A stretch of 64,000 bases of DNA from a virus, in the IMG/VR virus record IMGVR_UViG_3300037155_000072, positions 1 through 64,000 of that record; one strand, written 5' to 3'. The notes under the pieces were generated by a model. The model was not told the DNA's origin. It did not search any database and saw only the letters and a list, made by a program, of their open reading frames with translations. Within the stretch, counting starts at the first letter, position 1. Every line of letters starts with the position of its first letter. Shown here one piece after another: positions 57,064-57,401 of this stretch. The position numbers were made by a program, and so were the translations under genes.

Positions 57064-57401
57064 GGGCGTGAACTGGTTTCGACTTTGTCGGAGCCGTAGA
57101 TAGCGCATGCACAGGATGTCTCGTTGGCCTGTTTAAACACCGAGGCAAAACATAAATGCTAAAAACTCCGTAATGGAAGTGATTGACGCAGGTATGCAGT
57201 TGTTCGATATGTGTGCTCGGCCGGTCCGTGTCGCTGTTACCAACGGCGCGCGGGCAGTGAAGCAAAGCATCCGAGTCCAGTCTGGATTCGTTTCAGTGCC
57301 GTCAATGGCCTGATGGTGGAGGTAGGTAGTTCGGTAAGCATGTAAATCGTTTTCGAAAGCAGCGACAAAACACGCGAGTTCGAATCTCGCCACGTCCACC
57401 A
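57064..57401 (+). ncRNA. ssrA: tmRNA
   Basis: GGGCGTG/CACGTCC acceptor with G3:U70, GGTTTCGAC 5' motif, GCATGC..GCATGT helix, pk1, ATAAAT-GCT resume context, GCGAG-TTCGAAT-CTCGC T-arm, ACCA. Confidence 0.93.

Follow-up and report, generated by a model that had tools for sequence, protein, structure and literature searches.

Introduction

The SsrA tag of E. coli (ANDENYALAA) is built in two parts, with an adaptor site, a spacer and a nonpolar C-terminal degron. In phage surveys, ARAGORN is the standard finder of tmRNAs and of their tags. In 97,179 database sequences, tags were most often 10 aa long, and the shortest had 2 aa (PMC11915505), and tags normally end in a hydrophobic residue (PMC4131195). 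The 27-aa tag of Mycoplasma was called 'unusual long'; it is read mainly by Lon and is still a degradation signal, indicating that long tags can work (PMC8403727). In a survey of 2005, message regions were 48 to 126 nt long and UGA served as the single stop in only 10 of 269 tmRNAs; the number of pseudoknots differs among tmRNAs, and the pseudoknots are functionally interchangeable (PMC1168896). In E. coli, U85 and A86 precede the resume codon at G90, and the choice of frame depends mainly on A86 (PMC2481249). The tmRNAs of phages are also known (PMC4131195, PMC7162821, PMC12656738). For example, they were described from the mycobacteriophages Bxz1, Catera and others, from Bacillus phage G and from huge phages, and mycobacteriophage DS6A has a tmRNA consisting of the tRNA-like domain (TLD) only (PMC4131195, PMC7162821).

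The locus described here lies in a stretch of 64,000 nucleotides (the window), which is the first 64 kb of a 74,866-bp virus record in IMG/VR (IMGVR_UViG_3300037155_000072) rated as complete by CheckV. Like standard SsrA (RF00023), its tmRNA gene has an acceptor stem with G3-U70, ACCA, a T-arm, P2, PK1, an A-rich spacer with equivalents of U85 and A86, and a GCN resume codon, and the tag starts with AKN and ends in Ala. Unlike standard SsrA, the tag has 51 codons where the mode is 10 (PMC11915505), the frame takes up the space of PK2-PK4 and stops only about 20 nt from the closing strand of P2, the single stop is UGA, the carrier is a phage without smpB, and ARAGORN misses the gene. The Mycoplasma tmRNA is similar in that its 27-aa tag is also much longer than a ClpX-type decapeptide. 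However, it is bacterial, its tag has about half the length and is not similar to ours in sequence, and the two are related at the family level only. With the known phage tmRNAs our gene shares its carriage by a phage and, as is usual there, a place beside tRNA genes (PMC4131195, PMC7162821), whereas in the phage tmRNAs recovered here by ARAGORN the tags have 9-33 aa and ..AA ends, and none of them resembles this tag.

Our reading of the sequence is that a message of about 50 codons, conserved in a small family, is most likely translated into a long tag, through trans-translation that relies on host SmpB. If this is true, the conserved tag of about 50 aa would be about twice the message length in the cited literature, the pseudoknot region of a tmRNA could be given over to coding, and there would be a testable case of a virus with its own ribosome-rescue RNA and its own tag that relies on SmpB of the host.

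Identification and parts of the tmRNA gene

Rfam RF00023 matched a full-length tmRNA of 338 nt at 57064-57401 (+), with 77.3 bits against a gathering score of 47 bits (model 1-374, E 2.7e-28). Its parts are as follows.

57064..57401 (+): tmRNA gene, one-piece standard form (Rfam RF00023)
57064..57070 (+): acceptor stem, 5' strand GGGCGUG (sequence; Rfam posterior *)
57084..57090 (+): P2a, 5' strand UUUGUCG, pairing with CGACAAA 57363-57369 (fits the Rfam structure line)
57105-57110 (+): P2, GCAUGC, pairing with GCAUGU 57338-57343 (fits the Rfam structure line)
57111..57146 (+): pseudoknot 1, ACAGG 57111-15/CCUGU 57128-32 and GUCUCG 57118-23/CGAGGC 57141-46 (read from the sequence)
57153..57160 (+): frame-setting UAAAU, then the resume codon GCU 57158-57160 (Rfam consensus alignment)
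57374..57390 (+): T-arm GCGAG-UUCGAAU-CUCGC with a GUUCGAAUC-type loop (sequence, Rfam)
57391..57401 (+): acceptor stem, 3' strand CACGUCC, then discriminator A and CCA, with ACCA at 57398-57401 (sequence, Rfam)

The acceptor stem has 7 bp, in which G3 (57066) pairs with U 57395 as the G3-U70 wobble. Such a wobble confers alanine identity. Two interleaved stems can be drawn for PK1. The Rfam posterior was 6 to * over the acceptor, the D-loop analogue, P2, PK1, the resume region, the T-arm and the 3' end; across the PK2-PK4 columns, where the tag frame crosses, it was only 1-3, with many non-canonical pairs. The locus is a real tmRNA gene of a phage, both of its ends have the standard build, and all the parts for entry and template switching, from the acceptor with G3-U70 and the ACCA end through T-arm, P2 and PK1 to the resume context, are intact. 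ARAGORN, proposed in the first-pass annotation of this DNA for tag prediction, was run and reported no tmRNA at 57064-57401, but only the two tRNAs upstream. Since it misses this gene, tmRNAs of this form are probably under-counted.

The stretch with the tmRNA was found in peat and permafrost metagenomes from many studies. Two studies other than the original one gave the same gene, with 0 differences in 57064-57401: run X3 has it on a contig of 23 kb (depth 130), and run X10 on one of 1.35 kb (depth 45). The identity of these contigs excludes an assembly or sequencing error as the origin of the frame, including the loss of an early stop by sequencing error that had been named as a danger to the long-tag claim. 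Runs X11 and X13, with small word shares, cover only the tRNA-Met and the stretch after 57624, not the tmRNA. No RNA run was among the listed sequencing runs that contain the stretch, and neither a sigma-70 promoter nor an intrinsic terminator was found on the plus strand near the gene.

Resume codon and tag frame

Four features of the message region are used below.

57158..57313 (+): tag frame, 51 codons (57158-57310) and TGA 57311-57313, encoding peptide P0001 (translation, homologous frames)
57224..57255 (+): predicted 14-bp hairpin core inside the frame, codons 23-33, in the variable middle of the tag (ViennaRNA, prediction)
57272..57313 (+): two predicted hairpins, 57272-57290 (8 bp) and 57293-57313, the latter with the stop codon in its 3' strand (ViennaRNA, prediction)
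57312..57322 (+): GAUGGUGGAGG motif overlapping the stop codon (alignment with the metagenomic tmRNAs L010, L032 and L034)

The first-pass annotation had proposed GCT 57158 as the resume codon of a frame of 51 codons that ends at TGA 57311-57313, and these claims held. Translation of 57158-57313 gave exactly the 51-residue peptide quoted there, followed by TGA. In the Rfam alignment, GCU 57158 falls on the consensus resume codon, and U 57153 and A 57154, lying 5 and 4 nt before it, are the equivalents of E. coli U85 and A86 with the spacing described for that species (PMC2481249); by homology, GCT 57158 is the resume codon. A resume codon in a different frame, giving a short tag, had been foreseen as a case that would undo the proposal. 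This candidate was rejected, as the two other frames from the resume site either stop at once or after 4 codons (LKTP-stop). No vestige of a canonical ..LAA-stop was seen near codon 10 in any frame.

The length of the frame is by itself not significant, because a frame of at least 51 codons stays open with a chance of 14.9% in first-order Markov sequences of the tmRNA's own composition. Codon usage was scored with a model trained on 24 long phage genes. The tag frame reached +7.5 bits; 153-nt windows read in frame from real genes averaged 11.4 (sd 5.0), which puts it at their 21st percentile, and of non-coding frames without a stop, only 10% scored higher. Per codon, it scored 0.147 bits versus 0.104 bits for the lowest-scoring phage gene. 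The codon usage is mild support for coding.

The frame was also said to run through most of the region usually occupied by PK2-4, where the Rfam posterior is low. The minimum-energy structure (ViennaRNA; P2 pairings served as constraints in one fold) is a row of tandem hairpins at 57180-57206, 57209-57270, 57272-57290 and 57293-57313, with a modest z-score of -1.9. On this model, the tag frame either replaces the usual PK2-PK4 pseudoknot ring or is superimposed on it, and the stop sits in the 3' strand of a predicted hairpin, not in the helix 5 loop. Since pseudoknot number varies and pseudoknots are interchangeable (PMC1168896), the altered region is no argument against function.

Within the GAUGGUGGAGG motif, GGAGG is a perfect Shine-Dalgarno core; the motif also shows complementarity to the 3'-terminal UCCACCA. 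It recurs in the L010, L032 and L034 tmRNAs, which are otherwise unalignable with ours, and in L010 as here it overlaps or directly follows the tag stop. L010 (IMG/VR contig of 65,748 bp, tmRNA at 2493-2810 (+), 318 nt) has a 33-aa tag ending in QLAAA and differs from our gene in a few of the first bases of the 5' end. L032 has a 27-aa tag ending in VAVAA, and both of these endings are canonical. L032 and L034 are identical to our tmRNA in the 20-nt 5' end. L010 and L032 are both recognised by ARAGORN, and besides the motif they share with our gene a tag longer than usual, whereas their tags are unrelated to ours and shorter. The tmRNAs recovered by ARAGORN in this work had tags of 8-33 aa. 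As L010 shows, compact phage tmRNAs outside this window can have long tags too.

Relatives of the tag frame

The 51-aa peptide was used as a phmmer query against 1.84 billion representative proteins. Three ORFs matched it, and P0006, a fourth variant with one residue different, was grouped with P0003; beyond this ORF family, no protein among the representatives matched.

P0003: 46 aa, 78% identity, E 9e-16 (phmmer)
P0004: 76 aa, 57% identity, E 3e-8 (phmmer)
P0005: 44 aa, 52% identity, E 2.5e-4 (phmmer)

The relatives lie on ENA, JGI and Logan contigs of 500-4905 nt, where gene finders had called the ORFs on the sense strand. Each of the three aligns with the query along its entire length, in the same frame throughout. 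Fifteen columns are invariant (M6, V8, A11, G12, Q14, L15, F16, D17, C19, A20, P22, T28, G43, V45 and V47), the two internal gaps of the family alignment are whole codons, and the stop falls at one alignment column in all members, within one codon (endings PSMA, PSMA, VAVG and PIAA). P0001, P0003/P0006, P0004 and P0005 have a signature in common: counted from the resume codon the frame is 49-51 codons long, it contains M.V..AG.QLFD.CA.P, and its end carries G[FY]V.V.

P0004 begins at a contig edge within its tmRNA and reads ..NNRGKNIN|AKNTIMSVIDAGMQLFDMCAKP.., with the resume context (AUH AAY GCN) in frame. When it was compared with the phage genome by tblastn, residues 22-73 lay in the tag frame, at 57146-57298 (57.7% identical, with one gap of 1 codon), and residues 1-23 at 57085-57153 in another frame, in which our sequence has a stop. 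The PK1 stretch is recognisable in P0004, translated in that other frame. As the match switches frame upstream, this pair has a frameshifting indel in the short non-coding PK1/spacer and none in the 150-nt frame. Furthermore, the replacements are conservative: the mean BLOSUM62 score at replaced positions was 0.80, 0.17 and 0.10 for P0003, P0004 and P0005, versus about -0.3 to -0.6 under a null of random nucleotide change on our sequence with equal identity, no stop and a transition/transversion bias of 1 to 5 (P 0.004-0.012, 0.008-0.04 and 0.014-0.05, respectively; the three relatives are not mutually independent).

Conservation of the frame in homologues, which had been put forward as a check, was thus found in three diverged relatives, with in-frame indels only. 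Because at least three diverged relatives retain this long frame, it is probably real, an unusually long protein tag and not an accident of the sequence.

Searches of other collections gave the following results. A scan of IMG/VR and GTDB genomes with the tag-family alignment found no member, and neither tblastn of the tag nor blastn of the tmRNA had a match in 50,697 GenBank phage records. The exact 20-nt 5' end of the tmRNA was absent from IMG/VR, the 5' end was absent from GTDB genomes, and the PK1 pattern was absent from IMG/VR. In metagenome (JGI) contigs the 20-nt 5' end was present in three tmRNAs (L032-L034), common with ours only in the 5' end of the TLD. A gapped D-loop/T-loop pattern hit 24 loci in IMG/VR, of which some are unrelated tmRNAs and ten are without any tmRNA. 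As a separate observation, nine IMG/VR contigs (L003, L004, L005, L012, L015, L016, L018, L023 and L024) carry TGGTTTCGAC and GTTCGAATC spanning exactly 318 nt, with no tmRNA or other Rfam match; this stretch is probably a conserved protein-coding gene.

The tag peptide

Conservation along the peptide falls into three sections: an N-terminal section up to Pro22 (AKN..M.V..AG.QLFD.CA.P), a variable middle with the indels, and a nonpolar end G[FY]V.V...A/G. With the 4-sequence alignment as input, AlphaFold2 modelled residues 3-20, within the N-terminal section, as a helix and the rest as unstructured, at low confidence (mean pLDDT 61). By analogy, this layout resembles a stretched version of the two-part ssrA tag. 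No other frame in the phage genome was similar to the tag, nor was the L032 tag or the neighbouring ORF with its own 'CARP', and no cluster above 0.76 was found for the peptide in the ESM Atlas.

It had been suggested that the ending in SMA rather than LAA makes the peptide a non-degron or a jammer of host proteolysis. Our results did not support this: the terminal residue is Ala, hydrophobic as is usual, the final ten residues are nonpolar, and in one relative the ending is IAA.

Alternative explanations

The main rival reading is that the long frame is incidental to a working tmRNA or to a relic of one, the region being kept as RNA, an ancestral early stop having been lost and the appended peptide being unselected. 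The chance of about 15% for an open frame of this length fits such a history, as does the estimate that without selection the frame would stay open in 34-64% of lineages at these divergences. Moreover, the relatives were drawn from a database of called ORFs, in which family members with a broken frame would go unseen, so that an ascertainment bias applies to the comparison. Selection at the RNA level acts too on a region that is predicted to form stable hairpins, and the stop lies within GAUGGUGGAGG, a motif shared with unrelated tmRNAs, whose fixed place may be an RNA constraint. However, all indels inside the frame are whole codons while the spacer upstream has a frameshifting one in the same pair, the replacements are conservative beyond the null, the codon usage is gene-like, and an early ..LAA-stop near codon 10 has left no trace in any frame. 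We regard an incidental frame as unlikely.

Phage trans-translation may also be a labelling device. The 50-residue module (helix, linker, nonpolar tail) would then be selected as such and added to the products of stalled ribosomes for a recognition partner other than that of ssrA, for example an adaptor or protease that is encoded by the phage or is an alternative one, or else host ClpXP/SspB would be kept occupied by it. We consider this quite unlikely; if true, the phage would control trans-translation during infection, and the pseudoknot ring of a tmRNA could be turned wholesale into coding sequence.

A third possibility, that the RNA is mainly a decoy, appears very unlikely to us. Its tRNA-like domain would titrate host SmpB or occupy stalled ribosomes, with the message irrelevant or a ribosome trap. 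There is a precedent in the TLD-only tmRNA of mycobacteriophage DS6A, which inhibits the host tmRNA (PMC4131195, PMC11915505); our phage has no smpB, and other odd tRNA-like genes share the island with the tmRNA gene. Yet a TLD alone would do for this purpose, while PK1, the context equivalent to A86, the resume codon, the frame and the stop are all kept here and the peptide frame is conserved among the relatives.

Finally, it is highly improbable that the tmRNA likeness is secondary and the locus is an ordinary small gene read by normal initiation, either from AUG 57173 (46 aa) or as an antisense 89-aa ORF at 57133-57402, since, although Met6 is invariant, gene callers called ORFs of 44-46 aa in the relatives and the antisense ORF is open, no Shine-Dalgarno sequence precedes AUG 57173, upstream of Met6 P0004 remains similar as far as the resume codon, via AKN(S/T)(V/I), no phage gene in the training set has a score as low as the 0.082 bits per codon of the antisense ORF, the gene calls in the relatives are on the sense strand, and the Rfam E-value makes the tmRNA primary. 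The 89-aa ORF itself, which is open on the minus strand over most of the tmRNA, is probably spurious, though gene finders are likely to call it.

Proposed working of the tmRNA

The reading that we prefer, and hold to be probable with some reserve, is that of a working phage tmRNA which uses host SmpB and host AlaRS and appends a tag of about 50 aa. Host AlaRS would charge the RNA by way of its G3-U70 pair, and host SmpB and EF-Tu would carry the charged tmRNA to stalled ribosomes. After transpeptidation, the ribosome would resume at GCU 57158, in the frame that the UA at positions -5 and -4 selects, read 51 codons across the string of hairpins in place of the usual PK2-PK4, and end at UGA 57311. 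Each rescued protein would gain a tag of about 5.4 kDa and would read ..A-AKNSVMEVIDAGMQ.. at the junction and ..GFVSVPSMA at its C-terminus. The likeliest role of such a tag may be to mark the rescued proteins for proteolysis and to add rescue capacity in infection.

The dependence on SmpB of the host was proposed in the first-pass annotation, where no smpB was seen in the window. This agrees with our search, in which PF01668 had no match anywhere in the 74,866-bp record.

Phage context

The flanks of the gene were compared with those of a related virus record (G001; 75,330 bp, DNA polymerase 54% identical), the sole phage that was found via the DNA polymerase; a search via the neighbouring 215-aa ORF gave no relatives. 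Homologues in G001 exist on both sides of the RNA island, for w54215 and w51964 on one side and for an 81-aa protein, an endonuclease VII, a resolvase and w62873 on the other. G001 has no tmRNA, and of the RNA island it has only the tRNA-Met in common. Since the flanks match a phage without tmRNA, our gene lies in a variable accessory region; since both flanks have homologues there, it is phage DNA and not a host junction. A host ssrA at a prophage junction was rejected on the same ground, and an attP fragment was rejected because the gene is full length.

56419..56580 (+): two tRNA genes in the same RNA island, an odd tRNA at 56419-56494 and tRNA-Met at 56504-56580 (ARAGORN, Rfam)

At 57688-57829 (+), neither ARAGORN nor Rfam at E<=1 gave a match. 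The region has further unusual genes. A small serine recombinase of 239 aa (60104-60823 (+); a Resolvase domain and the start of a Recombinase domain) has a homologue in G001 with 41% identity. As it is kept in a phage without tmRNA, it is not linked to our tmRNA as an integration module. The gene at 58206-59420 (+) encodes a 296-aa protein with an ice-binding-like domain (PF11999, E 4e-55), which fits the permafrost and peat origin of the phage; the protein is similar in about its first 72 residues to the 81-aa ORF beside it, and a single region of G001 matches both. The odd tRNA (56419-56494 (+), Rfam 51.2 bits) has an anticodon loop of 8 nt, for which ARAGORN gave the four-base anticodon 'gtat' and named no amino acid. 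It could be frameshift-suppressor-like, or its remodelled loop could serve to escape anticodon nucleases.
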